A stretch of 64,000 bases of DNA from Nanobdellota archaeon (GTDB lineage: Archaea > Nanobdellota > Nanobdellia > Pacearchaeales > GW2011-AR1), in assembly GCA_030647125.1 (NCBI GenBank), contig JAUSKC010000013.1:2249-66248 (forward strand), written 5' to 3'. The translations under genes were made by a program, and so were the position numbers. The first letter of the stretch is position 1. Each line of letters begins with the position of its first letter. The notes beneath the pieces were generated by a model. It searched no databases. It saw only the letters and a list, made by a program, of their open reading frames with translations, and was not told the DNA's origin. This document shows, piece after piece, positions 23,503 to 62,912 of this stretch.

Positions 23503-23642
23503 ATCCAAAACAAAAATTCCAACTATAAAAAGTTTCATCTTTAATGTTTCTTCAATATTTCTTCAATGCCAAATCAGAATAGTTACTCCGTGTAAGTAAC
23601 TACAATAGAAACATTTATAAATGCCTAAAACGGGAAATAAAC

Positions 23643-23987
23643 ATGACAAACATAGGAAAAGGAATCACAGGTGGATTAGTATTAGCTTTGCTATCAGTTG
23701 GAACATTCTCTTTAGTAAAAGGAACTGAAATGGCTTCAGAAAGACAAGCAAGATCAGAATTAAGAGAAGTAATTGACACTCCAGAGGAAAGGGTAAGATT
23801 AGCAACAATGTTGGAAAATCAACCAGAAACATGGTATGTCTTAAACAAATTAAAAAAACAATATCCTTCTCTAAAAAATTCTGACCAGAATAGAATAGTT
23901 TACGAATTGGACCAATTAAGAAATTATGATTTAGGAAAAATGAATCAAGATGACTACAATGTTCATGTAGCTGCAAGAGATTTTTAA
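23643..23987 (+). CDS. hypothetical membrane-anchored protein (114 aa)
   Basis: ORF with an N-terminal TM helix (GITGGLVLALLSVGTFSLV). Confidence 0.4.
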   Translation: MTNIGKGITGGLVLALLSVGTFSLVKGTEMASERQARSELREVIDTPEERVRLATMLENQPETWYVLNKLKKQYPSLKNSDQNRIVYELDQLRNYDLGKMNQDDYNVHVAARDF

Positions 23988-26807: not shown

Positions 26808-27665
26808 ATGGCCTTGAAAAAACATCACAAAATTCTTATTGGAAGTTTCACAACAATTGTAATTATCTTTATGATCGCTTCCGGAATTTTAATTTACATG
26901 CTTTACTCTGACTTAAACATTAAATATAATGAAATAAATCAGAATATTGAATCTTACCAATTATTAACAACATCCCAAATAAATGAGCTTACAAAAAATA
27001 TTCAGCAAACCCAGTTATCTGTCTCATCTATAAATCAAACTTTTAACAATCAAATTGATTTGTTAAGGGCCTCTACAAGTTCCGACTTTTCAAAAATAAT
27101 TGGAGAGGCAGTTAAATCAGTTGTAACAGTAAGAACAGACGTCGCTCAAGCGACAGGATTTATAATTGATGAAAGTGGCTATGTAGTTACAAATGCGCAC
27201 GTTCTCTCGGGAGGCCATCAACTAATGACTATTGACTACAATCAGCAAGAAAGAACCACAAGATTAATTGGTTACGATAAAGATTTGGACATTGCTTTGC
27301 TTAAACTTCCAAAAGGAGATTATGATTACTTAACTCTCGCCGATTCTGATCAAGTGGAAGTTGGACAAAAAGTTATTGCAATAGGAAATCCTTTGGGCTT
27401 GCAATTCTCTGTTTCAGAAGGAATTGTCTCAGCAGTAAATAGACAAGGTAGCAATGCCTTAGATGCATACATACAAACCGATGCCGCATTAAATCCTGGA
27501 AATTCAGGCGGTCCGCTAATTGACTCAAACGGTGAAGTCATAGGAATCAACAATTTTAAAATATCATCAGGAGAATCATTAGGTTTTTCATTAGAATCAA
27601 ACTACATAAAAGAAGCAGTAAATCGAATAGCGCAGCAACAATTAAATCAAACTTTAATTAACTAA
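26808..27665 (+). CDS. membrane-anchored trypsin-like serine protease (HtrA/DegP core, no PDZ)
   Basis: TNAHV, DLDIALLKL and GNSGGPL catalytic-triad motifs, with an N-terminal TM helix. Confidence 0.8.
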   Translation: MALKKHHKILIGSFTTIVIIFMIASGILIYMLYSDLNIKYNEINQNIESYQLLTTSQINELTKNIQQTQLSVSSINQTFNNQIDLLRASTSSDFSKIIGEAVKSVVTVRTDVAQATGFIIDESGYVVTNAHVLSGGHQLMTIDYNQQERTTRLIGYDKDLDIALLKLPKGDYDYLTLADSDQVEVGQKVIAIGNPLGLQFSVSEGIVSAVNRQGSNALDAYIQTDAALNPGNSGGPLIDSNGEVIGINNFKISSGESLGFSLESNYIKEAVNRIAQQQLNQTLIN

Positions 27666-30393: not shown

Positions 30394-31437
30394 TCAAATC
30401 CCTTTTTCAATTCTCTCTCTAAATAATTCTAAATCCTCCAAGCGCACTTTCGCCCCGACGGCATCTTCATGCCCTCCCCCAGTTGCGCCTTCTAATCCAT
30501 CAATCGCTTTAAGAATAACCTTCTTAACGTTTTTCCCTCGAACAGAAATATTTGCTTTAATTCCTGTAACATAAACAACAATAACTATTTTTTCTGGAAA
30601 CAAGTACATTAATTCATTTGACAAATCAGAACTTATGCTCAAATCCCCTCCATACTGGAAAAACAAAATCTTATTTTCTTTATTGTAAACCTCTTTTGCT
30701 TTTTCAATTAATTTTCTATAACGCACCTCAATTTGGTCGAACTTGCTATGCATAGAATAATTTTTATTATTTGATTCTAGAACATCTCCCGGACTTCGCG
30801 CTTTCATAAGATATTTTATCATTGAAACAACATTTGTCGTGCTGTCTTTCAAGCCAAAATTAAAAATTCGCGCAACTCTTCCAATTTCAGTGGTGTAAAA
30901 AACTTCAAAAGCATTTTTTGTCTTAACTCCCAATTCAGGGAAGTTCTTTAAAAAATCCTTGTAAAAGGAAGGCATATAACTGTCAGAAATGCACCCTACA
31001 ACCGCAATCCACAAGTCCTCTTTTCTTGTTTTTTTAACAACTTGCCAGCACAAAGCCGTCGTCGGTTCAGAACTCTTTTTCTTGTTCAAAACTGGATTAT
31101 AATAATGCACAAATTCAGGAACAACAGAATCAACATCATGATGATCAATCCACACAACAGGGATATTAACTTTTTCAACTTCATCAAAAAATTCCTTTGA
31201 CACAAGCGGCTTATCAAGAATAAAAATATAATCAGCTTTTAATTCCACAACTCTCCTAAAATAATCCTTAGACATTTCCGGGAACGAACGAACTGGAACT
31301 CCCTTGCCTCTTCCTAAAAACCTTTGCAGCAGCAAAAAAGCGCTTAGTCCATCCGCATCATTGTCAAAAAAGAAAACTGGATTTTGCGCTTTGGCCAAAT
31401 GCCCGTTAATTTCATCAACTTGTTTTTTCGTTAACAT
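30394..31437 (-). CDS. stand-alone DHH/DHHA1 phosphoesterase (NrnA/Pde2-like)
   Basis: FFFDNDADG (motif I), WIDHHD (DHH) and ATGGGHEDAVGA (DHHA1 GGGH). The start overlaps the disA stop as TAATG. Confidence 0.8.
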   Translation of the reverse strand: MLTKKQVDEINGHLAKAQNPVFFFDNDADGLSAFLLLQRFLGRGKGVPVRSFPEMSKDYFRRVVELKADYIFILDKPLVSKEFFDEVEKVNIPVVWIDHHDVDSVVPEFVHYYNPVLNKKKSSEPTTALCWQVVKKTRKEDLWIAVVGCISDSYMPSFYKDFLKNFPELGVKTKNAFEVFYTTEIGRVARIFNFGLKDSTTNVVSMIKYLMKARSPGDVLESNNKNYSMHSKFDQIEVRYRKLIEKAKEVYNKENKILFFQYGGDLSISSDLSNELMYLFPEKIVIVVYVTGIKANISVRGKNVKKVILKAIDGLEGATGGGHEDAVGAKVRLEDLELFRERIEKGI

Positions 31438-32540
31438 TATATCTTCTTACCAACCATAATCTTTTCTTTCAAGCTGTTAATCTCTTTATTGAAAAATTCA
31501 ACCATCTCTTCGCTTCCAAAGATTTCCAAAAGCTCGTCGTTATCAGCTGCTAGAGTTCTGTCAAGCGTTTTGAACTTTGAAATTAAAGCGGTTGTATATC
31601 GCTCAAGCAAATTTGTTCTCCCCAAGATTCTCAAGCCCGAAGGACTGACTGATTCGTCATGCAGCTCTTCAAAAAGCATTCGTGAAATATTATTACTCTC
31701 GAGCAGAAAATCAAAATTAAATTTATCTAAAGTATTCGCCTTATTATTCCATTCATTTCCAAAATAATCTTTTAAAAGAATTTCCTCCTCTTTTCCTAAA
31801 TTTCCTGTCAATTCTTTAAGTCGCATACTTACAATCATCCCTTCCTTTCCAAGTTCAATCAAATATCTTTTTACAATTTCAGAAATTCTTTTTATAATTT
31901 CAAGTCGCTGCAAAACATTCGAAACATCTTCTATAGTTACCAACCCATTAATTTCAAGAATGTTAAAATTAGACATTAAATCATTAAAAGTCTCCCTTTG
32001 TTTTTCCAGAATTTGCAACGTCTCAGCCGCTCTTCTTAAAATTTCAGAGCTGTGATCAAGTTCATATTTCATATCACTATAATACAAAGAAATTTTATTT
32101 TTTCTTTCAGAGACAGCAATTACAATTGTTTTTGCTTTCTTCGCGGTCCTTTCAGCCGCCTTATGCCGCGTTCCCGTCTCTCTCGTCGGAATGTCAACTC
32201 CAGGGAAAAGCAAGGTATTTCCAAATAAAATTCTTTTTCCGTCATTGCTTAAAATTATTGCCCCATCCATCTTGCACAATTCAACCAACTTTTGCGCGCT
32301 GAATTTTGAATTTATTTTAAAACCCCCATCTGCAAGATCAAGAACATTTCCATTGTCAAAGACAATCAGCGCACCCATTCTTGCTCTTAACAAATCATCC
32401 AACCCCGTCCTTAATGAAGTTCCTGGCGCGAACATCTTAAGCACGTCGACAAAGTCCTTTTCTTTTTCAAAATTCTTAAGAGGATTCTCTGTAACAACAA
32501 TCTCCTGCACCTCTTTAATATCAGAATTATTTTCTTCCAT
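31437..32540 (-). CDS. disA: DisA-type diadenylate cyclase (DNA integrity scanning protein)
   Basis: GALIVF, ELCKMDGAIILSNDGKRIL and TRETGTRHKAAERTAKKAKTIVIAVSERKNKISLY, nearly colinear with bacterial DisA. Size 367 aa. Confidence 0.85.
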   Translation of the reverse strand: MEENNSDIKEVQEIVVTENPLKNFEKEKDFVDVLKMFAPGTSLRTGLDDLLRARMGALIVFDNGNVLDLADGGFKINSKFSAQKLVELCKMDGAIILSNDGKRILFGNTLLFPGVDIPTRETGTRHKAAERTAKKAKTIVIAVSERKNKISLYYSDMKYELDHSSEILRRAAETLQILEKQRETFNDLMSNFNILEINGLVTIEDVSNVLQRLEIIKRISEIVKRYLIELGKEGMIVSMRLKELTGNLGKEEEILLKDYFGNEWNNKANTLDKFNFDFLLESNNISRMLFEELHDESVSPSGLRILGRTNLLERYTTALISKFKTLDRTLAADNDELLEIFGSEEMVEFFNKEINSLKEKIMVGKKI

Positions 32541-40009: not shown

Positions 40010-43000
40010 TCATTCCAAATAAATCCCCGGCTTGCCCGGCTTAACTTTTTTGCTTTTTCCGTCCGGATCATATTTATCTTTATCATTAACAGCATAAACT
40101 TTTATATCAAGACCTGTTCGTTTTTTCAACTCATCAACGCTATCAACAAAATTCTTCTTTTCGTTAGGCAAAACATAAACCCAACATTTTGAAACTTCTT
40201 TTCCTTCCCGTTCTTTTATAATTTTAACAACGTGATTTATATCTTCAACAAGCTTTGCAACATCTTGCTCTTGCTTTTCCAAACTCTCATTAATCTTCGC
40301 TTCTTCAACTTTAGGCCATTCAGATGAAGAAATCAGACCAACACCTCCTATTTTCTCCCACATTTCTTCAGCTATGTGCGGGCAAAAAAGAGACAAAAGT
40401 TTCAAACCCTTTTCCAAAACTAATCTATCAGTTTCCAGAGGCAAAGAATTAAACAATTCCCTGACTTTTATAATTGCTAAGTTATATTTGAAATTTTCAA
40501 TCTGGTTCGTCATTTCTTTAATAATCTTATTCAATTTGCTTTCAATTTTAGCGTCTGATTTCTTAACAATCTTAACATTTTGAAAATAATCATAAACTTT
40601 ATTCAAGAATTTGAAGCTTCCAACAAGAACATTCTCATCCCAAAGAGTATCATTTTCAGGAGAAGCCAAACTCATTAAAGCCAAACGCAAAGAGTCCGCG
40701 CCATACTTCTTAATAATATCCAAAGGATTAATCACATTACCTAACGACTTTGACATCTTCTGCCCATCAGCGCCATGCAAAAGCCCTTGATTAAACAATT
40801 TAATAAACGGCTCATCAATTTCAGGAATCAAATCTAAATCCCTCAAGGCCTTTGTAAAAAAACGCGCGTAAATCAAATGCATCGTCGCATGTTCCGCGCC
40901 TCCAATATATTGATCAACAGGCATCCAGTATTTTACTTTATCAATTTCAAAAGGTTTTTTTGAATTTTCCGAGTCCAGATATCTCAAATAATACCAACTC
41001 GAATCAAAGAAAGTATCCATCGTGTCCGTCTCTCGTTTGGCTTTTCCATTACATGAAGGACATTTTACATTAATCCATTTTTCATTTGTTTTCAAAGGAT
41101 TTCCTTTTCCAAATTTAACTTTTTCAGGAAGAACAATAGGCAAGTCACTTTCTTTAATAGGAATAATTCCACACTTATCACAATAAACAACTGGAATAGG
41201 AGTTCCCCAATAACGCTGACGTGAAACCAACCAATCTCTTAATTTAAAATTAACAACCTTGCGTCCTAATTTTTTCTTTATTAAAAATTTAGTAATTTCT
41301 TCTTTAGCTTTTTCACTTTCCACTTCATCAAATTCATCCGAATTAATTAACCATCCTTCTCCAGTATAAGCTTTCGACTCTTTTGTAAAATCAATTTCTC
41401 CTTCCCTTGGCTGAATCACTGCCTTAATTTCAATATTGTATTTTCTTGCAAACAAATAATCCCTTTGGTCGTGAGCAGGCACAGCCATAACCATTCCACT
41501 CCCATAATCAGCGACGACAAAATTGCCGGCATAAACCGGAACTTTTTTATTATTTACAGGGTTTACAGCATAACTTCCTGTAAAGACACCTTCTTTGTCA
41601 AGTTCTTCAAGTTGTTTTTCAGAAACGCCTTTTAATTTTTTCAAGAATTTTTCTACTTCTTTCTTTTGTTTGTTAGAAACTAATTCCATAAGTCGCGGAT
41701 GCTGCGCTGAAACAACCATAAAAGTCACTCCGTAAATAGTATCTGGCCTTGTCGTAAATATAGACCACTTTTCATTTCCAATAATTTCATTTAAAAGTTC
41801 AGGAAATTCTCCTGTTCCCATATCATATATAGTATAATGCCCATGATTTTTTAATTCAATAATTTCGCCGCCCAAAGAATCATGAAAGATCTTAACGCTT
41901 TTCTTACCATCGGCTTCCTCATTATTTGCAGTAAAAATAATTACTTCACCAACTCTATCTTTAATTCCCAAGTCAATATTATAATCATAAAAATCTTTTG
42001 GAGCATTACCAGATTTAGCAATTTTCCAAGGTGCGACTAAAATTAGTTTTTTAATTTTCTTTTTAGTATCACCAAGCCATCTTACTAAAAATGCACAGCC
42101 GCAACTATGTCCAATTAAAACAGAATTCTCATCTATTTTATTTTTTTCGAATTCTTTCTTCCAATTATAATAATCAGCTTTCCAGGCCTCGGGCATTAAA
42201 GGAGAAAAAACCTTAATCTTTCTTTCCTCAAGTTTCTTTTTAATCCAAGGAATCCAATGTTTATCATAAGTTCTTTTTTCTTGAGAATACTCCGCTTTTT
42301 CAGCAGACGGACAACCATGAACAATCACAACATTAGAAAGTTTATTTGAATTTTCAATCTCAAACAAAATCTCCGTCCCTTCCGAACGTCCAATCCAATT
42401 CTTCTGCATCAACTTAATTCTTTCAGGCCAATATAACTTGTCAACCTTATCCAAAAGCTCGTCAGCATAATTTGTCGTTTTGATAAACCATTGTTCAAGT
42501 TGCTTGATTTCAACAGGTGTTTCAGGATGTCTCCAGCAACAACCACCATGAACTTGCTCATTCGCTAAAACCGTCTCACATTTACCACACCAATTAACCG
42601 GCGACTTTTTTCTATAAATTAAACCTTTTTCATAAAGTTTAAGAAAAAAATATTGATTCCATTTATAATATTCCGGCTTTGACGTCACAATCATTTTACT
42701 CCAATCGTAACTCAATCCTAACTTATGCTGTTGATTTACAAAATTTTTTATAGAATTTTCAGTGTACTTTCTAGGATGTTCCCCTGCTTTTATCGCCGCA
42801 TTTTCAGCAGGCAATCCAAAAGCATCGTAACCCATTGGATAAAGAACATTCATCCCTTGCATTCTCTTGAAGCGCGCATAAATATCCCCTATAGTATAAT
42901 TCAAAGCATGGCCCATATGCAGTCCAGCTGCCGATGGATACGGAAACATTTCAAGAACATAAAACTTCTTTTTCTTTTTCGTGCCTGCGGCGTCCGGGGA

Positions 43001-43072
43001 TACTTCAAAGACCTTCTTTTTTTCCCACTTACTCTGCCATTTTGTTTCTATCTTTTTAAAATCATAAACCAT
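40010..43072 (-). CDS. leuS: leucyl-tRNA synthetase, bacterial-type, with a nested alpha/beta-hydrolase domain
   Basis: HMGH (aa 52-55), WIGRSEG (aa 226-232), TTRPDT (aa 440-445), MAVPAHDQRD and KMSKS. 1020 aa. Confidence 0.9.
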   Translation of the reverse strand: MVYDFKKIETKWQSKWEKKKVFEVSPDAAGTKKKKKFYVLEMFPYPSAAGLHMGHALNYTIGDIYARFKRMQGMNVLYPMGYDAFGLPAENAAIKAGEHPRKYTENSIKNFVNQQHKLGLSYDWSKMIVTSKPEYYKWNQYFFLKLYEKGLIYRKKSPVNWCGKCETVLANEQVHGGCCWRHPETPVEIKQLEQWFIKTTNYADELLDKVDKLYWPERIKLMQKNWIGRSEGTEILFEIENSNKLSNVVIVHGCPSAEKAEYSQEKRTYDKHWIPWIKKKLEERKIKVFSPLMPEAWKADYYNWKKEFEKNKIDENSVLIGHSCGCAFLVRWLGDTKKKIKKLILVAPWKIAKSGNAPKDFYDYNIDLGIKDRVGEVIIFTANNEEADGKKSVKIFHDSLGGEIIELKNHGHYTIYDMGTGEFPELLNEIIGNEKWSIFTTRPDTIYGVTFMVVSAQHPRLMELVSNKQKKEVEKFLKKLKGVSEKQLEELDKEGVFTGSYAVNPVNNKKVPVYAGNFVVADYGSGMVMAVPAHDQRDYLFARKYNIEIKAVIQPREGEIDFTKESKAYTGEGWLINSDEFDEVESEKAKEEITKFLIKKKLGRKVVNFKLRDWLVSRQRYWGTPIPVVYCDKCGIIPIKESDLPIVLPEKVKFGKGNPLKTNEKWINVKCPSCNGKAKRETDTMDTFFDSSWYYLRYLDSENSKKPFEIDKVKYWMPVDQYIGGAEHATMHLIYARFFTKALRDLDLIPEIDEPFIKLFNQGLLHGADGQKMSKSLGNVINPLDIIKKYGADSLRLALMSLASPENDTLWDENVLVGSFKFLNKVYDYFQNVKIVKKSDAKIESKLNKIIKEMTNQIENFKYNLAIIKVRELFNSLPLETDRLVLEKGLKLLSLFCPHIAEEMWEKIGGVGLISSSEWPKVEEAKINESLEKQEQDVAKLVEDINHVVKIIKEREGKEVSKCWVYVLPNEKKNFVDSVDELKKRTGLDIKVYAVNDKDKYDPDGKSKKVKPGKPGIYLE
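41768..42340 (-). other. RBBP9/YdeN-type serine hydrolase domain inserted in LeuRS (aa ~245-435)
   Basis: VVIVHG..HWIPWIKKKL..VLIGHSCGC (GxSxG, Ser codon 42104-42106)..LILVAPW..NHGHY, colinear with B. subtilis YdeN as I recall it. Confidence 0.7.
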
Positions 43073-53059: not shown

Positions 53060-54382
53060 ATGATATTCAAAAGAAAAACCAAAACAAGAAATTATTTTTT
53101 CCCAAAAAAAATGAGTGGCATAAAAAAAGCAGCTATAGGGGCATTGGCTCTTGGAGCAACAGGATTAGGATTATGGATTTATAGTATAAATTCAGATTTC
53201 GAAAAACATTTCGGAAACCATCAAAGCATACAAAGAATAGATTACTCTTCACAAATTCCCTCTTCTCTTAAAGGATTAAATTTTCCTCAAAAATACGACG
53301 CATTAACTTCACACTCACAAGAAAAAACAACATCACACTCTCTTGAACAAAAAGTTGCACTAGCAAAACCAACTCCAACTTATACTCCAATACCAGAGCC
53401 AACAACAACGCCTAAGACAGAACCAACTCTTAAATATATTATATTAAAAACAGCAAATAAAAGCCTTACATCACCTTCAATACCTCCAGTAGTTTTACCG
53501 ACGCCAAAACCGACAGTAACTCCTACTCCAACACCAATGGCAACTCCTATTCCAACTTATACTCCCACTCCTAGAGCTACACCAACGCCAAGTCTTACAC
53601 CAATTCCAACACCAACGCCAACACCTATTCCTTCAAAAGAAAAAACAAATGGGCCTTCAATTTACACAGTTGCCCTAGCAAATATTGCAGCGGTAAAGGA
53701 ATTAGCACAAAGAGGAAATGAAAGAGTAAAAGAAACATTCTCTTATCTAGGAAAAAAACTAAAAGAAACAGAAGATAACAGGTATAACATAAACAGAAAA
53801 GACATAAGATTATCTACTGAAACAACAAATAGTGTTATTGTAGGAGAACCTAACAGAGTAATGGGAACTCCTTATTTCTATCAATCTATAGGAGAAAATG
53901 GAGTTTCAGTCAATGGAAAGAAAGTTGAAAAAGGATTAGAATTTTTAGCAAGAGAATATGATGAAAATCTTGAAATAATTAGAAATGGGAAAGATATTGA
54001 CTTTGATAGTCCAAGGAAACTTGTTTACGTTCCAATATCAAAAGATGAAAAGGGAATTTGGCATGTCGATTATGACTCTCAATTAGAAGAACATGATATT
54101 TATACTGCAAGACCAATAACTGATAAAGATGTAAAAGATTTTATAGTAATTCCAAAACACGAAAATGATTTGTTAACAGATAAAGATGCAAAGCCAAAAG
54201 AAAAATCATTTTATCTATTTGCAAACGGAACAAGAATTAGCATTCCTGAAATAAAAAGCCCGTCGGGAAATGATTACATCCCACAACATATCTTAATTCC
54301 TAAACCTGCAAAAGAGGTCTATCAGCCAGCAACAGGAAAAATAGGAAAAAGAGGAAATGTCTACATTCCTGTATTACAATAA
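53060..54382 (+). CDS. membrane-anchored surface protein with Pro/Thr-rich linker
   Basis: N-terminal TM helix (AAIGALALGATGLGLWIYSI), PT-rich tract at aa ~103-193 (nt 53366-53640), and a C-terminal roughly 245-aa globular part of unknown family. Confidence 0.6.
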   Translation: MIFKRKTKTRNYFFPKKMSGIKKAAIGALALGATGLGLWIYSINSDFEKHFGNHQSIQRIDYSSQIPSSLKGLNFPQKYDALTSHSQEKTTSHSLEQKVALAKPTPTYTPIPEPTTTPKTEPTLKYIILKTANKSLTSPSIPPVVLPTPKPTVTPTPTPMATPIPTYTPTPRATPTPSLTPIPTPTPTPIPSKEKTNGPSIYTVALANIAAVKELAQRGNERVKETFSYLGKKLKETEDNRYNINRKDIRLSTETTNSVIVGEPNRVMGTPYFYQSIGENGVSVNGKKVEKGLEFLAREYDENLEIIRNGKDIDFDSPRKLVYVPISKDEKGIWHVDYDSQLEEHDIYTARPITDKDVKDFIVIPKHENDLLTDKDAKPKEKSFYLFANGTRISIPEIKSPSGNDYIPQHILIPKPAKEVYQPATGKIGKRGNVYIPVLQ

Positions 54383-54390
54383 CTAAGCCA

Positions 54391-57300
54391 CTAAACTATT
54401 TGGGTAACCGAATTCGTTGCACTAGAACTATACTCATTATAATACTTAATAACATTAGGGACATGAGTACTTTTTGCACGGATTAACTTTTCTTCCTTAA
54501 CCTTCCCATTTAAATTTTGTACACATTGATCATAATTAATAAAAGTTCCACCAACTTTACAATTACTAACAACAACAGAAGGACCGACATTGTAAGCTAA
54601 AGCCAAAATTCTTGGATTAGTTATTTGATAATTACTCCTTAAACAAGAAACATAACAAGTTCCAACTAAAATATTTCTCCTGTTAGCAATTCCATTAATA
54701 TCAGTCGTACTAGCAAATTGTGAAAGCAATTGCGCTCTGCTCGTAGACAAAGTAGAATAACCTATATTACTCAAATCAGCCGAACATGAAGGAACACAAA
54801 TCCCATCGATAGAATGAGTATTAAGATTAACAAAATCACTTAACATGCCATCTTCTTTTGCAGGAGTCAACTGCATTAAACCGATATCAGGAGTGCTTGC
54901 TGGATTCCAATCACTCTCTTGTGTTATTAAGGCCCTCACAAAATTTGCATTAACATTATATTTACCAGTTACTTCAATAACATAACTTGTCAAAGCGCTT
55001 TCAACATCACTATTGCTCGTAGAAATACGAACATTCTGACTATCAGAACTTAAAACATCATAATTTAAATTAATGCTATCAAAACTTGAAGTAGTTGCAG
55101 TTACTCCTCCACTAGTTCCTGTTTCAGTCGTCGTTCCGCTCGTCTGCGAATTAACAATCATATCAACAACTCCAAGCAAATCAGAATTTGTAACACTTGA
55201 ACTAAAAGTATTAGAAGTAACAGGAATATCTTTCAAATTCTCCCCATCATCAACTTTCCAGACCCCATCATAATAAAAATGATAACTTGTTGAACCGGAA
55301 GTCGCGCTAAAATAAAAGTCCCCTATGCCCAAACTTTGCGAACTTACAATTATATTTGCAATAGATTGTTTATTTTCATTAGTTAAACCAACAAAAGGAT
55401 CAGAAAATGTTCCACTTCCCGTAGTCGACACACCGCCGCCAACTTGATTTGTACTTAGTATGGTCTGTTGTGAAATAGCTTTATTATTTTCATCCTCAAA
55501 ATCCTGCGTCGCCAAAATTCCATAAGCTACTGCTCTCAAGAACAATATCTGTACCTTATTTGTATCCAACAACGATTGAGAAATTAAATTCTCAGTAATG
55601 TAACTTATTTTTTCAGCCGGACTCATTGCATTAATTTTATTCAATTCCATGTTTATATCAAATGAACTCGTCTGACCCAAAGCATTTATAACACTCGAAG
55701 ATAAACCTTGCAATGTATCGTTCTCAATTCCTATTCCTTTAATTGCTTGCTTAACGCTTTGCGTATCAATATAACAATTTAATCCTGCCGTCCCGCAACT
55801 TCCAACTTGAACCCAACGAGCATTTGCCCCTCCATCCAAAGGATCAGTTCCTTTTCCTGGGCTTGAAGTAGAACACACACGAACAATTCCTTGATTGTAC
55901 AATTGCGGATTCAAAACTTGATTCGCGCCTTCTTGAACATTTGGCTGAACTAAACTATAAACACTCGGCGTTCCTGAAACACACTCTTGTTCAGTTTTTA
56001 CTGTCTGCGTCGCTTGCTCTTTCAAATACTGATCATTCAAATAATTCAAAGCAAATGAAGTTGTAACTTTTTGGAAGCCGCAATCATCTTTTCCGTTGAC
56101 AGAAATACACATCTGTTGATATCCTGTCGGAGCAAGAATATCTTTTGTTTCTGATGCCGAGCCGCCACGTTTAATATAACCAGAATCAACAACTAAAAGT
56201 TGATTTGTCTGGTAATAAGAGCTTCCAACTGGCGCCTTCAAGTAAACTTGGAAATAAGCACCTTGATCATTTCCAGAATAAATATGATAAAAGACCTTAT
56301 ACTGCGAAGTTGAAGGCACTGTAGCCGTTGTGTAAGGAATTTCGCTGAACCATCCTTGATATTGATTTGGTGAATCAGGAGCAAGCAAGTTATCTAAGAA
56401 TTTTCCACTATTAGGGTAATTTGCCGACGCGAACGCCTTACAAACTGTGCTTCCAACTTCATTTGTCGACCTAGCTTGGAACGCCTTATACGATTGAGCT
56501 CCATAATAATTAACCATATAATCAATTGAATTCTGCGCATTTGTCCAAGCACTTTGAATTCCTAAATATTCTCCACCGCCATGCGACGTCTTTCCTGAAA
56601 CAACTTCCAAAAGTTTCGGAACTAAAAGATTTGCAACTGGAATTGATTGTCTCCACAAAAATTCACACATATAAATACTATTAATCTCGTCACAAATTCC
56701 AACAGTTCTCCCAGTATCTAAATTATCTTGCAAACACATTTGATAATCTTTCATTACAGAAATTAAATCATCAACTCCTGCTTTAACTCCAGTTAAACAA
56801 ATAGGAACTTTAACTTCCGGGAAATTAGGCAAGCAAAGAGCGACACTTCCTATAATTCCGGATTGAATAACATTATCAACATGGTACGAACCACCTAAAT
56901 CACATCTTGAAGATGGACAAATTACCGGGTCGCAAACATTAAATAATAAATTACAATTTGCAGGACTCATGAAATCAGTGCATTCAATATCCGGAACATT
57001 TGTAGCTGGATTTCCAACTTTAATTGTCTGTCCGTTAATAACAACTTGAGTTACTCCTGCCTTGTATTGTCTGCTAGCTTGAGTAATTGCATTTATCGCT
57101 TGCCTTACTAAACTTTGAGTTTGCCCTTCAGTAAGCCCTGGGAAAGATCCGTAAATCGCTCCAGTTCCAGGATTAAATTCTGTGCAAGTGTCATCGCCAA
57201 ATCCTGAATCAGCTTGTGCTCTCCCATTAGCACCAACATTACAAAGCAAGAAACTTGCAGGAGCTCCTGATTGATCATACGTCGCTGTAGCTCCTCCAAC

Positions 57301-60300
57301 ACCAGCAATGTTAGCCAAAGCGCCAGGCAAAGTCTGTTTAGTATAAGTATACCACCCATTGCTCAAATCAAATGGAACTTGTGCAGGCATTCCTTTGTAA
57401 GGTGCTGTTTCAAAATACTTTACTTGTGCATCAATAAATTTATTATTATAACTTGAACTATCATACTTTACAAAAACAGGATATCTTGATTTCACAAGCT
57501 TAGTATTTTCATCGCTTGCAGCTCCGCCAGCTAAATCATAAACATTATCTGGAACATAATTTCCATTCCCAGCATCCTTCAAACTGACAATATATTCTCC
57601 ACTACTTACAATGGCTCCTGCAACAGGCGTTCCAGAAATTATTCCATAACTATTCGCTCCTGCAACTGCTCCATTATAAACTCCTGGCTTCAAATCTTTA
57701 TCCACAAAAACATTAAAGTTAAGTCCGTTTATTCCTTTGCCCGCAGCTTCACTTACACTATTTGTTATCTTTGTATATGTCTCGCTTCGTGTCTGAATTG
57801 TTTTTAACGTCGAATACAAATTCGCTTTGGCAATTTGTTCTAATTCAGGACTAGGATTGTTTGCCAAAACCGCATTCCACGTCGATATATCTCGAGCTTC
57901 GCTTAACTGAACTTGCCCATCACTATACCCTTTTTGTGTAAAAACACTTTTTACTTCGGCAACATCAATATTATTATTTTGATTATTAGGATCTGTAATA
58001 ACTGCAGGCAAACCACTTGCAATTTGTTGTAATTGTGTTCCTGCATTGCTGTCAGTTACAGGATTTTTACTATACTCTGTAATAATTTGGCTTAATTTAT
58101 CAACATCAGTATTTATCTCGTCATTATTTTCAAGCAGACACGTGCTTACACTAGAATATTTTTTCTGGCTGAATAATTGTTGACATTTAGAATTCCATCC
58201 TCCAGGCCCAGTCATCACGTTTTGTCTAGCAATTGCTTTTCCTCCAGTATTGCTTATGAAATTTGAAACTGTCAAGAAAGCCCCCGTCGTCAAACACGCT
58301 GCCTTAAACCCTGTAACAACTGTTCCAAGATTCTTAGAAATTCCTTCCCATTTGGCAATGCTTTGATTCAAATTATTAATTTTAGATTGAATCTGATCCG
58401 GCGCAAGTTGAATTGCCCGCTTTTCAATTCCAAGTTTAAAACTAAAATTCGCTTGTGAATTAACATTATTTATTTCAGGAATTAAAGATACCTTTGCAAC
58501 TTTATGCAGATTAATTCCTGTTAAAATAATTGTTTTATCCCCAACAGCAACGGCTTTGTTCTTTTGAAGAATAAGATTCTGATTAGACGCAAATCCTGCT
58601 TTATCATCTTTTATAGTTGAAACAGCCTTAACACTTACAGTCGCCGTATTATCATCTAAATTAACTAACTGAATAAATTCGCCGCTGGAAGAATCTTCAT
58701 GCTTTTGTTCCTTTCCAAGTTGCACACTTTCACTCCCAAACAATATATTCGCGCTGTAATCATTCGGCGACGGCTCAACAACATCATTTAATCCAATTGT
58801 CGTAGCAACTCCATTAATCAATAATGTTTTTGAACTTGCTGCCCCATTTGACAAAGCTAAAGTGTCTCCGCACTGATTTTGAACTTGAACTAATAAAGGC
58901 GATGTTGAATAAAGTTGCACGAAACGTCCGCAAAGTTCAGTTGCTTTAGAATATTCATGAACTCCAAATGCAAGTTTTATTGCAGCAAACAAAGAACTCT
59001 CTCCATAAGTTACTCCTCCATTATTTACACTTCCATAAGAACTGACTATTCTATTATAATCACTCAATGCCTTAAAAAAATTGCTTCCTTGCTTATTGCT
59101 GAAATCAAATTTATTAACTCCAGTAGAATATCCCACAACTTTTAAATCACTTCCAAAAACACTCGTCGATAATTTAATCTTTGGATCAACTGTCTGCGCC
59201 GCTCCAAAAGGAACAACTTCTCCTCCCAATATACTAAAAGAAGAAATATCTCCTGCTCTAAATTTAGAATTAATTGTATTTGTAATTGTGCTTAAAGTTG
59301 AGGCCTCTAAATTTGAATTTGTTGTCTCATAAAGATAAACATACAAATCACCTGTGTTCATAGAATCAAGATTTGGTTTTCCACTAGCATCCTTTGAATA
59401 AGAACCAGTATAAACTAAATATGCATTCTGGCCATTTATAGAATGAACTAACTCGCCAACATTCTTCACAATAGGATTGCCCCCTACATCAAGTTTCACC
59501 GACGGACTTGTTATCAAATCAAAACTCTGACTTCCACTATCAGTTGTACATCTTACACTTACTCTCTTATTCAACCCTTGTTTTAGGACATTATAGGCCT
59601 GGCATCTATTTTCTGCAAAACTTTGTCCTTCTGACAAATCAAATACATTTCCATTGATTTCTACTTTTGCAATTGTGCCCGGATTTTGTATATCATCTAA
59701 ATGAACTCTCATATAAGCATTACAATAAAATCCTGGAATTGCAATCTGGCCAGAACTTGCTCCCTTTTGCAAAGTCACACTATAAGTTCTTTGTGTCTTA
59801 TCAGCATAAACAGAAATTGTCGCGTCGTTATTTGTAACATCATTCACTCTCAAATATCCTCTCCCATTCCAAAATCCATACCCAACAAAATTATTATTCC
59901 AATCACTTTCACTTAAAACCGGAAGAACGTATTGTGATTGACCTATGCCAAACGCTTTTTGAATATCATAACGAATCGTCGCTGTCAAGTTTCCTTCGAC
60001 AAAATCTGGCATTGCAGATTCATTTTGTTGTTGTTTCAAAACAATAACTGCATAACCAACATTGCTCAAAACAGGAGAATTTAATAAAGTCCCGCTTGAA
60101 TACGACAAAGCAGCCCTTGCAGGATAAAATCCTATTCCTGAAATAGCAGCCGGCCTTTGTGTTCCTGAAGAAAAACCAATATCCATATGCTCAATTGCCT
60201 TAACGTCAATTAATGGATTTATTTTAGTTGCAACTATCGGACAAAAAACAGGAACATTTTCTTCTTCTAGCAAATCGCTTCTTACCACCATTGGTGTACA

Positions 60301-60510
60301 TCCAAGTGGAGCAATCTGCAAAATAAAATCAGCCCCATTAGCATCACACCTTATATTTGAATACTGCCCGACATTTAATCCTTGAGAATTCAAATAATTA
60401 AAAGCATCCGGCTGAGAATACTGAACATAAGAGCTTGTATAACCAGAAACAAAATTAAATAATAAAATCCCATATAAAAAAATTGTTAAAAAGATAAATT
60501 TTTTATTCAT
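54391..60510 (-). CDS. giant secreted Cys-rich protein (2039 aa) with C-terminal lytic transglycosylase (SLT) domain
   Basis: Sec-type signal MNKKFIFLTIFLYGILLFNFVSG. Uninterrupted 6.1-kb ORF. The C-terminus carries ITQESDW (Glu codon 54916-54918), IGLMQL and LALAYNVGP, which are SLT motifs I-III. Confidence 0.85.
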   Translation of the reverse strand: MNKKFIFLTIFLYGILLFNFVSGYTSSYVQYSQPDAFNYLNSQGLNVGQYSNIRCDANGADFILQIAPLGCTPMVVRSDLLEEENVPVFCPIVATKINPLIDVKAIEHMDIGFSSGTQRPAAISGIGFYPARAALSYSSGTLLNSPVLSNVGYAVIVLKQQQNESAMPDFVEGNLTATIRYDIQKAFGIGQSQYVLPVLSESDWNNNFVGYGFWNGRGYLRVNDVTNNDATISVYADKTQRTYSVTLQKGASSGQIAIPGFYCNAYMRVHLDDIQNPGTIAKVEINGNVFDLSEGQSFAENRCQAYNVLKQGLNKRVSVRCTTDSGSQSFDLITSPSVKLDVGGNPIVKNVGELVHSINGQNAYLVYTGSYSKDASGKPNLDSMNTGDLYVYLYETTNSNLEASTLSTITNTINSKFRAGDISSFSILGGEVVPFGAAQTVDPKIKLSTSVFGSDLKVVGYSTGVNKFDFSNKQGSNFFKALSDYNRIVSSYGSVNNGGVTYGESSLFAAIKLAFGVHEYSKATELCGRFVQLYSTSPLLVQVQNQCGDTLALSNGAASSKTLLINGVATTIGLNDVVEPSPNDYSANILFGSESVQLGKEQKHEDSSSGEFIQLVNLDDNTATVSVKAVSTIKDDKAGFASNQNLILQKNKAVAVGDKTIILTGINLHKVAKVSLIPEINNVNSQANFSFKLGIEKRAIQLAPDQIQSKINNLNQSIAKWEGISKNLGTVVTGFKAACLTTGAFLTVSNFISNTGGKAIARQNVMTGPGGWNSKCQQLFSQKKYSSVSTCLLENNDEINTDVDKLSQIITEYSKNPVTDSNAGTQLQQIASGLPAVITDPNNQNNNIDVAEVKSVFTQKGYSDGQVQLSEARDISTWNAVLANNPSPELEQIAKANLYSTLKTIQTRSETYTKITNSVSEAAGKGINGLNFNVFVDKDLKPGVYNGAVAGANSYGIISGTPVAGAIVSSGEYIVSLKDAGNGNYVPDNVYDLAGGAASDENTKLVKSRYPVFVKYDSSSYNNKFIDAQVKYFETAPYKGMPAQVPFDLSNGWYTYTKQTLPGALANIAGVGGATATYDQSGAPASFLLCNVGANGRAQADSGFGDDTCTEFNPGTGAIYGSFPGLTEGQTQSLVRQAINAITQASRQYKAGVTQVVINGQTIKVGNPATNVPDIECTDFMSPANCNLLFNVCDPVICPSSRCDLGGSYHVDNVIQSGIIGSVALCLPNFPEVKVPICLTGVKAGVDDLISVMKDYQMCLQDNLDTGRTVGICDEINSIYMCEFLWRQSIPVANLLVPKLLEVVSGKTSHGGGEYLGIQSAWTNAQNSIDYMVNYYGAQSYKAFQARSTNEVGSTVCKAFASANYPNSGKFLDNLLAPDSPNQYQGWFSEIPYTTATVPSTSQYKVFYHIYSGNDQGAYFQVYLKAPVGSSYYQTNQLLVVDSGYIKRGGSASETKDILAPTGYQQMCISVNGKDDCGFQKVTTSFALNYLNDQYLKEQATQTVKTEQECVSGTPSVYSLVQPNVQEGANQVLNPQLYNQGIVRVCSTSSPGKGTDPLDGGANARWVQVGSCGTAGLNCYIDTQSVKQAIKGIGIENDTLQGLSSSVINALGQTSSFDINMELNKINAMSPAEKISYITENLISQSLLDTNKVQILFLRAVAYGILATQDFEDENNKAISQQTILSTNQVGGGVSTTGSGTFSDPFVGLTNENKQSIANIIVSSQSLGIGDFYFSATSGSTSYHFYYDGVWKVDDGENLKDIPVTSNTFSSSVTNSDLLGVVDMIVNSQTSGTTTETGTSGGVTATTSSFDSINLNYDVLSSDSQNVRISTSNSDVESALTSYVIEVTGKYNVNANFVRALITQESDWNPASTPDIGLMQLTPAKEDGMLSDFVNLNTHSIDGICVPSCSADLSNIGYSTLSTSRAQLLSQFASTTDINGIANRRNILVGTCYVSCLRSNYQITNPRILALAYNVGPSVVVSNCKVGGTFINYDQCVQNLNGKVKEEKLIRAKSTHVPNVIKYYNEYSSSATNSVTQIV

Positions 60511-62387
60511 TGAAACTCAACCCCCAATCCATTGTTATCATATAAAATATAATTTTCTTGTAACCGCTCAATGCTATTTGGTACAGGAAGTGAACTTGCA
60601 CTTATAACAATTTTATCTGAGTCCTGCAATTCAGATTGTGAAACGTAATAATCTTGCTTTCCTCCTCCAGATAAAACATTCGTTAAACTTTGCTCCGGAT
60701 AATTGATATCAAAACATTTTTCTTGTGTAAATCCAAACAAGCCTCCAACTCCCGACGCTGGAACATCAACACACTGCTGCTGCGTGCTTTCAGGAATAGA
60801 CATGCTTGAATTTTGATAAATAACCACTTGAATATTATACTGCCCTTCACTCAACTCAACACTGTTCTGTCTAGGGAAAACTGCAGTCACTGCACTTCCA
60901 TTTTCTTTATTGAAAGAAATAATTGCATCTCCTCCATAATCCTTTCCATCAACTTTTAATTCCAAATTCTTGCTATACAACTTGCTTAAAACAATATCAA
61001 CTTGGCCTGATTGTGCCTGCGTTACCACATACGTTCCATCTTCATAACCATCGGTCTGCGCAACAACTTTTCCATTAACACATTGAGGAATCTTTCCGTC
61101 CAAATGCCCCCCTTTTGTCTGTCCTATATCACATTGAGTTCCAAAACATTCGAACGAAACATTTGCATCAACCTTATTCAAATTGCTATCATAAACATTT
61201 ACTCCAACATTTGAGTTTGCATACTCGCACAACGAAGTGTCCGTCCCTACTGCTACCGCCCCTACTAAAGATTTCCGAGGATGATTTCCTTGAATTACAA
61301 CTGCAATAGGAAACTGGAAAATAGCGCCGGTAGGATCGTCATAAATCTGAACTAAGACAGGATATTTAACATCATAAACAAAATGGTACGGAACATAACA
61401 AAAGCCCAAAGCCCCCAAACCTTGTTGATTTCCAACCGGATCCGCTTGAAGAACATTCCCATTAGAAGGACTAACTTCGTAAACATGAGGCCAATTCTTA
61501 GACGTTAAGAATTTAACATTTGTATTCGTTCCCAAATCCTCAACAAAATACTGATCTTTCTTACTATTCAAACTATAATCTCCTCCCTTAACTTTAATTG
61601 CTACAATGTTCGCATCAAGTCCGTTTCCTAAATTTTCTAAGACGTCCTCTGCAATCCATGTTTTAGGTGCGCACTGAATTTCAACTCCATCTACCGGAGC
61701 ATAAAGTCTCAAAATATCCAAAGTTCTATTTTCTAAAAATAAATATTTCTGCTCATTGTTATAGACCTTTAATGCATCCGAATACATACTTCCAATGTTT
61801 GAATTAATTGAAATTTTATGGTTTCTTACAAGAACACTTTCATTCCCTTTTCTAATCACTAAATCCATTACCATATCAATTTGAACTTTGCTATCAGAAA
61901 TACTAACATCCGCTTTGGGCTTAGACATATTAATAACCAAACCATCACTATAAAATTCAGAAAAATCACAACTTCTAGCTCGTGCTTCAATAAATTTTGA
62001 TAAATCATTTTCCATACTTGTCATTGAAGGAACTTGTTGTTTCTCAACTCCATTACCTGAAACGTAATACCAATAAGGAATAGGGTTGCCAAGAAAATCC
62101 AACTGCGATGAAAAAGGCGAGAAGCGTGAGCCCGGATAAAATTGAGGCATATAAATATAACCGCCTTGACTTCCAAGAACATTAATTCCTGTCTTCAAAT
62201 CATTTTGCAAACAATTTTGGAAATTAGTGTAGGCAGGTTGCAAATCAGAAGGAATATTGTTGTTACTTACATCAGCAAAAAAAACAAAATACGCTATTAC
62301 GCCAGCAACAATAACTATTCCAAGAATAATAAATATTGTCGCCTGCGCCCTGTTATTTCTAGCAAAATCTCTCCCCTTTTCGAACAT
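60507..62387 (-). CDS. 626-aa surface protein with class III (type IV pilin-like) signal peptide
   Basis: The N-terminus ...ARNNRAQATIFIILGIVIVAGVIAYFVFF fits the [KR][GA]|Q + hydrophobic pattern. The remainder is beta-rich and Cys-containing. ATGA overlap with the giant gene. Confidence 0.75.
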   Translation of the reverse strand: MFEKGRDFARNNRAQATIFIILGIVIVAGVIAYFVFFADVSNNNIPSDLQPAYTNFQNCLQNDLKTGINVLGSQGGYIYMPQFYPGSRFSPFSSQLDFLGNPIPYWYYVSGNGVEKQQVPSMTSMENDLSKFIEARARSCDFSEFYSDGLVINMSKPKADVSISDSKVQIDMVMDLVIRKGNESVLVRNHKISINSNIGSMYSDALKVYNNEQKYLFLENRTLDILRLYAPVDGVEIQCAPKTWIAEDVLENLGNGLDANIVAIKVKGGDYSLNSKKDQYFVEDLGTNTNVKFLTSKNWPHVYEVSPSNGNVLQADPVGNQQGLGALGFCYVPYHFVYDVKYPVLVQIYDDPTGAIFQFPIAVVIQGNHPRKSLVGAVAVGTDTSLCEYANSNVGVNVYDSNLNKVDANVSFECFGTQCDIGQTKGGHLDGKIPQCVNGKVVAQTDGYEDGTYVVTQAQSGQVDIVLSKLYSKNLELKVDGKDYGGDAIISFNKENGSAVTAVFPRQNSVELSEGQYNIQVVIYQNSSMSIPESTQQQCVDVPASGVGGLFGFTQEKCFDINYPEQSLTNVLSGGGKQDYYVSQSELQDSDKIVISASSLPVPNSIERLQENYILYDNNGLGVEFQ

Positions 62388-62428
62388 AATTAAAATATGA
62401 AAATTACTTATATAAACATTATGATAAA

Positions 62429-62500
62429 TGGCCCTGCGCGGAATTGAACCGCGGTCTCATCCACGTCAAGGATGCGTCTTAGCCGTTGGACTACAAGGCC
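62429..62500 (-). tRNA. tRNA-Val (GAC)
   Basis: Reverse complement GGCCTTGTAGTCCAACGGCTAAGACGCATCCTTGACGTGGATGAGACCGCGGTTCAATTCCGCGCAGGGCCA. Anticodon loop TTGACGT. Confidence 0.85.
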
Positions 62501-62594
62501 ATAAAATTAATTATAAAAACAATTCATAAATCTTTCTTTTATCATTAAAGATTTTACCAATTAACTTTAAAAACCCATCCCATCTATTAAAAAA

Positions 62595-62912
62595 ATGAAA
62601 CTACCGAAACAAGTAATGCGTTTCAATCCATACTTAAGAAAGAGAACTTTGCATAAAATAAAGATAGTTAGCACAGGAAATAAAAGAGGAACTTTAACAC
62701 GTGGTTCGATTAATCGTGCAAAATTAAGGGGCCTTGGAAGAGGGATAGGAAATAAAGGAAAATGGGGTTCAAAACCTGCTGTCTCTAAATTCAAAAGAAA
62801 AGCAAAGACAACAAAAACAATGAACATAATGTATACTTGTATTGAATCTGGAAAATCACACTATAGAAAATCAAGGAGAAATCAAAGAACTGGTAAAATC
62901 CAGCAAGAATAA
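62595..62912 (+). CDS. very basic 105-aa protein, weakly ribosomal-protein-L34e-like at its N-terminus
   Basis: TATA-like TTTAAAAA about 25 nt upstream of the ATG. PYLRKRTLHKIKIVSTGN loosely parallels RYRSRSLRRVYRKTPGG of eL34, but the Cys ligands are absent. Competing antisense ORFs exist. Confidence 0.35.
   Translation: MKLPKQVMRFNPYLRKRTLHKIKIVSTGNKRGTLTRGSINRAKLRGLGRGIGNKGKWGSKPAVSKFKRKAKTTKTMNIMYTCIESGKSHYRKSRRNQRTGKIQQE

Follow-up and report, generated by a model that had tools for sequence, protein, structure and literature searches.

The closest described relatives of the protein reported here belong to fam00969, a family that Castelle et al. 2021 (PMC8204110) describe, in the passages devoted to it, as Pacearchaeota and Woesearchaeota proteins of up to 3,000 amino acids (aa) with a lytic-transglycosylase (SLT) domain and a predicted extracellular location; the same passages put forward attachment to or degradation of bacterial walls as their role. 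Large SLT proteins had been noted earlier by Rinke 2013 and Castelle 2015 (as cited in PMC8204110). A "large lytic murein transglycosylase" figures in the relevant part of Vigneron 2022 (PMC9723730), and comparable statements appear in the corresponding parts of that paper, a 2024 ISME J paper, and a 2024 mBio paper. We present here a 2039-aa giant protein and its pilin-like partner, encoded in a 64,000-nucleotide (nt) stretch (the window) of a Nanobdellota archaeon (GenBank assembly GCA_030647125.1, contig JAUSKC010000013.1, positions 2,249 to 66,248 of the forward strand). Coordinates are window positions unless a locus is named.

The giant shares with fam00969 its lineage, its size class (up to about 3000 aa), the SLT domain, the predicted location, and the hypothesis on its role. 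Its relatives have the published traits (1774-3243 aa, lineage, signal peptide, SLT), a membership assigned by description and not by accession. The basic observation is not new, as both the family to which the giant adds a member and the hypothesis on its role are in print. The initial annotation of the window, made by a model from the sequence, had considered the architecture not assignable to any described system, which the 2021 description of both family and hypothesis contradicts. What differs is the definition: the passages on fam00969 define the family by SLT, which here is an optional tail on a 1670-aa core. Those passages likewise do not mention core/tail modularity, tail replacement between close relatives, a second GH23 subtype, an obligatory pilin-like partner with ATGA coupling, a fixed housekeeping synteny, or about 2300 aa without a fold match. 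These additions are incremental, but they make the question sharper and open to experiment.

Other known systems offer partial parallels. Rhs/YD proteins, CdiA, and evolved VgrG are polymorphic effectors, in which a conserved delivery region carries swappable C-terminal domains. SlaA and SlaB form the two-component surface layer (S-layer) of Sulfolobales, and the tetrabrachion S-layer of Staphylothermus displays proteases. PilY1 with minor pilins and the modular pilins of Streptococcus sanguinis are pilus-tip adhesin or modular pilin systems. The SPEARE proteins are giant surface proteins of Nanohaloarchaeota. Giant genes of Omnitrophota are implicated in cell-wall degradation in the part of a preprint that deals with them (bioRxiv 10.1101/2023.11.21.568195). 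The theme common to SPEARE proteins, Omnitrophota giants, and the present family is that of very large secreted multidomain lytic proteins in host-dependent or predatory cells; no homology of the giant core to either was detected among the phmmer matches listed for aa 661-1690 (best 150 of 1182).

The giant protein: core and tails

The giant is encoded on the minus strand by an open reading frame (ORF) of 2039 aa plus stop with an ATG start (54391..60510), and NCBI holds an identical protein (P0001, "hypothetical protein Q7S56_01980 [Nanoarchaeota archaeon]"). BLAST alignments with 119 homologues are colinear at ~40% identity from aa 1 to about aa 1670; beyond that point similarity ends in nearly all of them. 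Judged from these alignments and the tails described below, SLT is one of several interchangeable tails on a 1670-aa core and not the defining part of the protein.

A single 6.1-kb ORF, a composition rich in S/T/N/G/Q/V, a Sec-type signal peptide, and no C-terminal anchor had all been read from the sequence at the outset, and each holds up. Residue percentages are S 10.5, G 8.5, V 8.4, N 8.3, T 7.1, and Q 5.5. A 19-residue Kyte-Doolittle scan of the whole protein finds its sole hydrophobic segment at the N-terminus, MNKKFIFLTIFLYGILLFNFVSG|Y, and no internal or C-terminal membrane segment. From this hydropathy scan, and not from a signal-peptide predictor, a Sec-type signal peptide is predicted at aa 1-23 (60442..60510, minus strand), with predicted cleavage at VSG|Y. 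The N-terminal hydrophobic segment recurs in 116 of 120 giant homologues, and a C-terminal one occurs in none of the 120. The giant is predicted to be exported and, by hydropathy, has no anchor of its own.

A word-indexed search with the giant gave 721 significant matches; the 120 best measure 1774-3243 aa, and those among them that carry names are without exception labelled Nanoarchaeota, Pacearchaeota, or "archaeon". A phmmer search with aa 661-1690 against 1.84 billion cluster representatives gave 1182 matches at E<=1e-3, with 1112 at E<=1e-10 and 959 at E<=1e-30. Weak distant relatives of the core are almost absent (~70 matches between 1e-3 and 1e-10), and the matches listed (best 150 of 1182) are all giant proteins of the same family. 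By these searches the family is closed, with about 1,000 clusters at 50% identity, and confined to metagenome-assembled genomes (MAGs) of Nanoarchaeota, Pacearchaeota, and Woesearchaeota.

The conserved core spans aa 24-1670 (55501..60441, minus strand). Its best-conserved blocks are aa 61-330, 661-800, and 1021-1590 (51-53% identity), and the BLAST alignments place variable insertions at about aa 396-477 and 590-611. In alignments of 41 sequences, on which the AlphaFold2 models also rest, all 30 core cysteines are invariant or >=90% conserved, which suggests an extracellular, disulfide-bonded protein. Ten invariant ones make up a dense cluster, CTDFMSPANC...MCEFLW (aa 1177-1286; 56653..56982, minus strand), which lies within the most conserved block and had initially been placed at about nt 56640-57000. 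The core also holds an invariant IEKR site, with an amphipathic helix rich in Gly/Ala/Thr downstream of it, and its last conserved element is a helix ending in KVQILFLRAVAYGILA, with the family consensus KAxLLLLRGxAYxxLA.

AlphaFold2 models aa 24-660 (predicted local distance difference test [pLDDT] score, 76.7) as beta-rich with a TPR-like helical insert. The model of aa 661-1690 (pLDDT, 62.9) contains a beta-hairpin, a ~220-aa helical region with ~50-residue helices, beta domains, a helical Cys-rich part, an FnIII/ApaG-like sandwich, and a helical C-terminal end. The initial description of this sequence as presumably beta-rich agrees with the modelled beta domains and misses the long helical regions, which lie at about aa 704-925, 1183-1305, and 1583-1690. 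The core gave no informative fold match, and NCBIfam and PHROGs returned nothing for core or partner; some 2300 aa of conserved core and partner sequence are without a fold match.

Past the core, the variable tail begins with S/T/G-rich linkers and a small module (aa 1671-1810; 55081..55500, minus strand); the module (aa 1696-1795) is common only to the closest relative (P0002, locus L004). Ten tails and a further 53 from species-representative genomes were typed by Pfam. SLT was found in 17 of the 53; other tail families were Amidase_3, Amidase_2, VanY, Peptidase_M15_4, Peptidase_M23, Glucosaminidase, Peptidase_M10, and DUF1615, and single family members carry ankyrin-repeat, leucine-rich-repeat, or CAP-domain tails in place of hydrolases. 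A family-specific hidden Markov model combined with a motif search counts ~88 GH23-like tails in 172, a figure that is approximate, as the P and L tail sets partly overlap, and that takes in a second subtype (…QESxxxHC…GVMQIN…YNGW…) with a profile match to goose-type lysozymes (E about 2e-3). In some 40% of tails no catalytic domain can be recognised, and a few members stop right after the core, with tails of 4 and 33 aa (L055, 16798-16809; L006, 17132-17230). Since the core is kept without a hydrolase tail, it must have a function independent of murein cleavage.

In the window genome the tail ends in a GH23/SLT family-1 lytic-transglycosylase domain region (aa 1811-2039; 54394..55080, minus strand), delimited by Pfam, tail alignment, and PDB profile. 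The three SLT motifs first noticed by eye stand in order on the minus strand: ITQESDW (aa 1862-1868) with the predicted catalytic acid Glu1865 of the ES motif (codon GAG, 54916..54918), IGLMQL (motif II, 54868..54885), and LALAYNVGP (motif III, AYNxG; 54580..54606). In alignment A4, which joins the giant tail to ten homologous tails of family members (11 tails), the invariant residues are E1865, S1866, G1877-L-M-Q1880, N1946, G1950, Y1953, Y1973-N1974, and G1976, along with Cys1984 and Cys1996, which are family-specific cysteines of the SLT tails. The Pfam SLT profile PF01464 scores 27.5 bits on the whole giant and 32.7 bits on the tail alone, both above its gathering score of 21.3. Against solved structures, the A4 profile matches MltC (1.2e-22), EmtA (MltE; 3e-16), and Slt70 (1.2e-15), and also goose-type lysozymes (2e-8); it is the last of these sequence-profile matches that supports a predicted goose-lysozyme-like alpha-helical fold. 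In the profile-to-PDB alignment, the ES, GLMQ, N-x3-G-T-x-Y, and AYNxG motifs fall in register with MltC. The Glu of ES is the catalytic residue in both MltC and Slt70.

The match depends on the query: phmmer with the whole giant found no match among PDB sequences, a whole-family profile gave weak MltC matches (E 0.12), a homologue search with the SLT domain alone gave no match, not even the giant, and the strong SLT match needed a domain-only profile. PHROGs gave weak "lytic tail protein" and "endolysin" matches on the SLT part. Given PF01464, the matches to the three transglycosylases, and the invariant E1865, the assignment survives the refuting outcomes named initially (no SLT match, or no catalytic Glu on alignment): the giant ends in a genuine SLT/GH23 domain of family 1 that has kept its catalytic Glu, and catalytic activity is predicted. 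MltC, EmtA, and Slt70, which have the four motifs in common with it (profile E values from 1e-22 to 1e-15), are periplasmic housekeeping enzymes of murein-producing bacteria and measure 200-620 aa; in the giant, by contrast, the domain occupies the last 11% of 2039 aa, has a ~60-aa insertion between GLMQ and the N-x3-G-T-x-Y motif, and carries extra conserved cysteines.

The closest relative, 88% identical in aa sequence, is colinear with the giant to aa 1792 and then continues into a GH73 glucosaminidase, not SLT. At the nt level its similarity to the window (87%) stops at 55109 and resumes at 53734, with flanks 87-93% identical; the cassette in between (53735..55108), made up of the SLT tail and the 3' part of a convergent ORF, has no nucleotide match in L004. 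So abrupt an end of similarity, just before the SLT domain, could be read as an artefact, in which a chimeric assembly or a mis-called ORF has fused an archaeal gene to a bacterial SLT gene. We give this a negligible chance: the identical NCBI protein is recorded on an 85-kb contig, GH23 occupies the same C-terminal position in dozens of independent assemblies, SLT tails have their family-specific cysteines, guanine-plus-cytosine (GC) content is uniform across the 55109 breakpoint, and flanking synteny resumes past the cassette. These cysteines and the native GC content also argue against recent transfer of the SLT domain.

This modularity resembles that of Rhs/YD proteins, CdiA, and VgrG in its conserved N-terminal bulk, its sharp boundary after KAxLLLLRGxAYxxLA, and its unrelated enzymatic tails, and, as among polymorphic effectors, a tail has been replaced between 88%-identical proteins. 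Unlike those systems, the giant has no sequence or fold similarity to them, no immunity gene, and no orphan cassette; its locus is housekeeping and not mobile, and many of its tails are non-enzymatic. No immunity-like conserved gene lies downstream, and no orphan SLT-like cassette was found in 44 downstream regions. An immunity gene would not be needed by a producer that lacks murein.

The pilin-like partner and its locus

The partner gene (60507..62387, minus strand) encodes 626 aa of no known family with 10 invariant cysteines, and its stop overlaps the giant ATG by 4 nt (ATGA). Its class-III-signal-like N-terminus (aa 1-37, MFEKGRDFARNNRAQ|ATIFIILGIVIVAGVIAYFVFF; 62277..62387, minus strand) is the only one of its kind in the window. 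It reads ...NNRAQ-ATIFIILGIVIVAGVIAYFVFF, with one hydrophobic helix after RAQ and no other hydrophobic segment in the protein. At least 2056 partner homologues exist; the 120 listed are 586-639 aa long and about 50% identical beyond the closest few, and 102 of them have [KR][GAS]Q followed by a hydrophobic stretch. The family consensus at the N-terminus is KRGQ-VTIFIIIAIVIV (KRGQVTIFIIIAIVIVAGV), with Gln invariant. This N-terminus fits an archaeal class-III (type-IV-pilin-like, prepilin-type) signal, in line with the pilin-like partner originally proposed. The partner has no match in Pfam (E<=0.1), NCBIfam (E<=0.01), PHROGs, or PDB sequences, and profile-profile comparison with the giant detected no shared domain. 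A pilin-type N-terminus with a large extra domain, coupled genetically to a large non-pilin secreted protein, recalls PilY1 and the modular pilins; unlike in PilY1 systems, the partner has no Pfam pilin domain and there is no pilus machinery among the scanned window ORFs.

The homologue and neighbourhood search that the initial annotation had recommended places the family in DPANN MAGs and ties it to the partner. When one genome per GTDB species was scanned, 386 encoded relatives came up, and 80 loci were kept, one per assembly. All 83 loci examined have giant-core sequence immediately after the partner gene, and 39 of them show the exact 4-nt overlap. The recurring order is S3Ae-L44e-(tRNA or small ORF)-partner-giant-(0.1-4.3 kb variable)-TFIIB-S8e-LSM-tRNase Z; the arrangement S3Ae-L44e-partner-giant-TFIIB-S8e is kept in 37-62 loci per flanking marker. 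Measured against the proteins of the window, the median identity is 50% for the partner, 51-53% for the giant core blocks, 63-64% for S3Ae/S8e, and 91% for TFIIB, and partner and giant are about as conserved as tRNase Z. Because this synteny recurs and conservation is comparable to that of tRNase Z, the pair is a vertically inherited, strongly constrained lineage feature, neither mobile nor recently acquired. A phage or tape-measure origin of the giant was likewise rejected on the strength of the conserved housekeeping synteny.

In the window, TFIIB, S3Ae, S8e, L44e, a tRNA-splicing endonuclease, aminoacyl-tRNA synthetases, FtsZ, and GatDE surround the giant; these genes identify the host as an archaeon, as had been stated. 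The 80 kept loci all have archaeal labels except for one "Bacillota" contig. This locus (L062; DATKUW010000047.1, "Bacillota bacterium") carries a TFIIB 92% identical to that of the window, with S3Ae, S8e, L44e, tRNase Z, and partner-giant in the usual order. Since archaeal TFIIB, S3Ae, and S8e appear on it in the same arrangement, the contig comes from an archaeon and was misbinned into a bacterial MAG.

Such constancy would also be expected if the pair built the envelope of the archaeon itself, partner and core forming an S-layer-like or stalk-like lattice (anchor plus canopy) to which the hydrolase tail is a muropeptide-scavenging accessory. In favour of this, the pair occupies a fixed housekeeping locus in all loci examined and evolves about as slowly as tRNase Z, the core persists when the tail is absent or non-catalytic, no other function can be assigned to the core, and a large anchorless secreted protein stands next to a small membrane-inserted partner. 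The last point is shared with SlaA/SlaB and tetrabrachion, where a large anchorless secreted protein is likewise co-transcribed with a smaller membrane-inserted partner, and where a hydrolase can be displayed on the scaffold. The SlaA/SlaB anchor, however, is a C-terminal transmembrane helix and that of the present pair an N-terminal class-III-type helix, and the core fold shows no similarity to known S-layer proteins. We regard an envelope-building role as somewhat unlikely.

A proposed surface complex acting on bacterial murein

We see about an even chance that partner and giant form a surface-tethered complex that contacts a partner cell and locally opens its bacterial murein. In this scheme, the partner helix would keep the partner in the membrane or let it enter a type-IV-pilus-like filament. 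The giant would share an mRNA with the partner (ATGA overlap), cross the membrane by way of Sec, and lose its signal peptide; since it has no anchor of its own, the partner probably holds it at the cell surface. The 1670-aa disulfide-rich core would serve as a conserved scaffold and the C-terminus as a plug-in effector position. In the window genome the effector would be an intact GH23/SLT lytic transglycosylase (Glu1865); in relatives it would be an amidase, a D-Ala-D-Ala or LD-carboxypeptidase, an M23 endopeptidase, a GH73 glucosaminidase, or a set of non-catalytic repeats. The enzyme would bind and locally open the bacterial sacculus where cells touch, for attachment, access, or feeding.

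To our knowledge, archaea of the Pacearchaeota/Woesearchaeota type do not make murein, and for this reason the enzyme most likely targets a bacterial partner. Murein chemistry speaks to the same point. N-Acetylmuramic acid (MurNAc)-L-Ala amidases, VanY/M15 D-Ala-D-Ala carboxypeptidases, M23 endopeptidases, and GH73 enzymes target features that pseudomurein and chitin lack. The presence of Amidase_2/3, VanY, M15, M23, and glucosaminidase at the same tail position as SLT strengthens the original suggestion of foreign bacterial murein as the target. A different substrate is conceivable, whether methanogen pseudomurein, chitin-like glycans, or the archaeon's own wall polymer, cleaved by an autolysin or during division: GH23 includes enzymes that act on chitin. 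The alternative tails, with their murein-specific chemistry, point to a bacterial target and away from pseudomurein or chitin; the scan of window ORFs turned up no Mur-type genes, and a paper on pseudomurein evolution has no such report for DPANN. A non-murein target is very unlikely on this evidence.

The missing anchor would equally suit an enzyme that is shed and acts at a distance, a free scavenging or antibacterial murein hydrolase with no contact role whose core provides stability or substrate binding. Other archaeal lineages have been shown to possess peptidoglycan hydrolases that kill bacteria (PMC12352652), and scavenging of dead-cell peptidoglycan has been proposed for Pacearchaeota in the literature. 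A diffusible enzyme, however, would hardly call for so large a conserved core (1670 aa) or for an obligatory, translationally coupled partner inserted in the membrane or a pilus, and the hydrolase is absent from many members. A released enzyme is improbable, and a contact-dependent complex is also in keeping with the unusually strong host attachment of Pacearchaeota at a groundwater site with few non-DPANN archaea.

Several observations weigh against a murein-opening surface complex. In about half of the tails a murein hydrolase cannot be recognised, and a few members are tail-less. Neither core nor partner has a match to a known adhesin, pilus-tip, S-layer, or secretion fold. The pilin status of the partner comes from the N-terminal motif, with no Pfam pilin domain called, and the 46 ORFs scanned in the 64-kb window include no prepilin peptidase, pilus ATPase, or platform protein. 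The PF01464 alignment spans just profile positions 2-47 of 117, ending at position 47 because of the ~60-aa insertion after GLMQ, and leaves catalytic activity plausible. The data show the gene structure, the domain identity and motifs, the size and taxonomic restriction of the family, the linkage to the partner, the synteny, and the swapping of tails; surface location, complex formation with the partner, catalysis, bacterial target, and biological role are predictions from sequence.

More tentatively, partner and core may be a lineage-defining surface machine, an archaeal counterpart of contact-dependent polymorphic-effector systems, with a tail that matches the wall chemistry of the host and a core that is a new-fold scaffold or perhaps, with its long helices and IEKR site, a penetration device; we consider this possible but doubtful. 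If the tail does match the host wall, the hosts across this large, uncultured radiation could be predicted from tail repertoires. Pacearchaeota and Woesearchaeota are among the most widespread uncultured archaea, and the gene pair would be the most concrete handle on their host interaction, murein-only enzymes on an exported giant in many genomes being direct genomic evidence for archaeon-to-bacterium interaction. The focus of study shifts from a "transglycosylase" to the complex of core and partner; tails could serve as probes of the sacculi they bind or cut, and the core as an antibody or tag target in cryo-electron tomography.

Flanking and other features of the window

A TATA-like box, TTTATATA (62409..62416, minus strand), matches the archaeal TATA-box consensus; it lies downstream of tRNA-Val, 22 nt upstream of the partner ATG, and is likely the operon promoter. 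tRNA-Val itself, found by tRNA search, lies on the minus strand between L44e and the partner gene (62428-62501). In L004 (2634-8424) this tRNA has the opposite orientation and lies apart from L44e, with about 5.7 kb of extra DNA in between. Two ORFs overlap on the L44e side, at 62567-62827 (minus strand) and 62595-62912 (plus strand); the latter is L44e (NCBIfam E 5e-10, kept in 62 loci), and the 86-aa minus-strand ORF is probably spurious.

On the other side, a convergent 440-aa ORF (53060..54382, plus strand) with an N-terminal transmembrane helix and a long Pro/Thr-rich linker has its stop 8 nt from that of the giant. No full-length homologue of it was found in the 82 other loci scored (L004 excluded), and L004 matches the region only partly, at the tRNA-Leu/5' end (nt comparison). 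As it is not conserved, it was rejected as a third component of the system. The distance from the giant stop to TFIIB ranges from 145 to 4328 nt across genomes, which marks this spot as a variable insertion site; in many loci it is just 145-300 nt. In L003, whose 3243-aa giant carries M23 and Amidase_3, the interval from the giant gene to TFIIB holds a YkuD (L,D-transpeptidase-fold) gene (23233-23946 of that locus, minus strand) and two large ORFs (412 and 699 aa), possibly additional accessory genes directed at murein.

The GC content of the host genome is roughly 33%. Farther from the pair, the leucyl-tRNA synthetase (LeuRS) ORF (40010-43072, minus strand; 1020 aa) contains a Ser_hydrolase/alpha-beta-hydrolase match (PF06821, E 1.2e-12, aa 270-426) between the catalytic core and the editing domain, an unusual insertion for LeuRS. 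At 30394-32540 (minus strand), a DisA-type diadenylate cyclase (DAC plus DisA-linker) adjoins a DHH/DHHA1 phosphoesterase, a possible pair for synthesis and degradation of cyclic di-AMP. A 285-aa trypsin-like (Trypsin_2) peptidase ORF at 26808-27665 (plus strand) is a possible second exported hydrolase.

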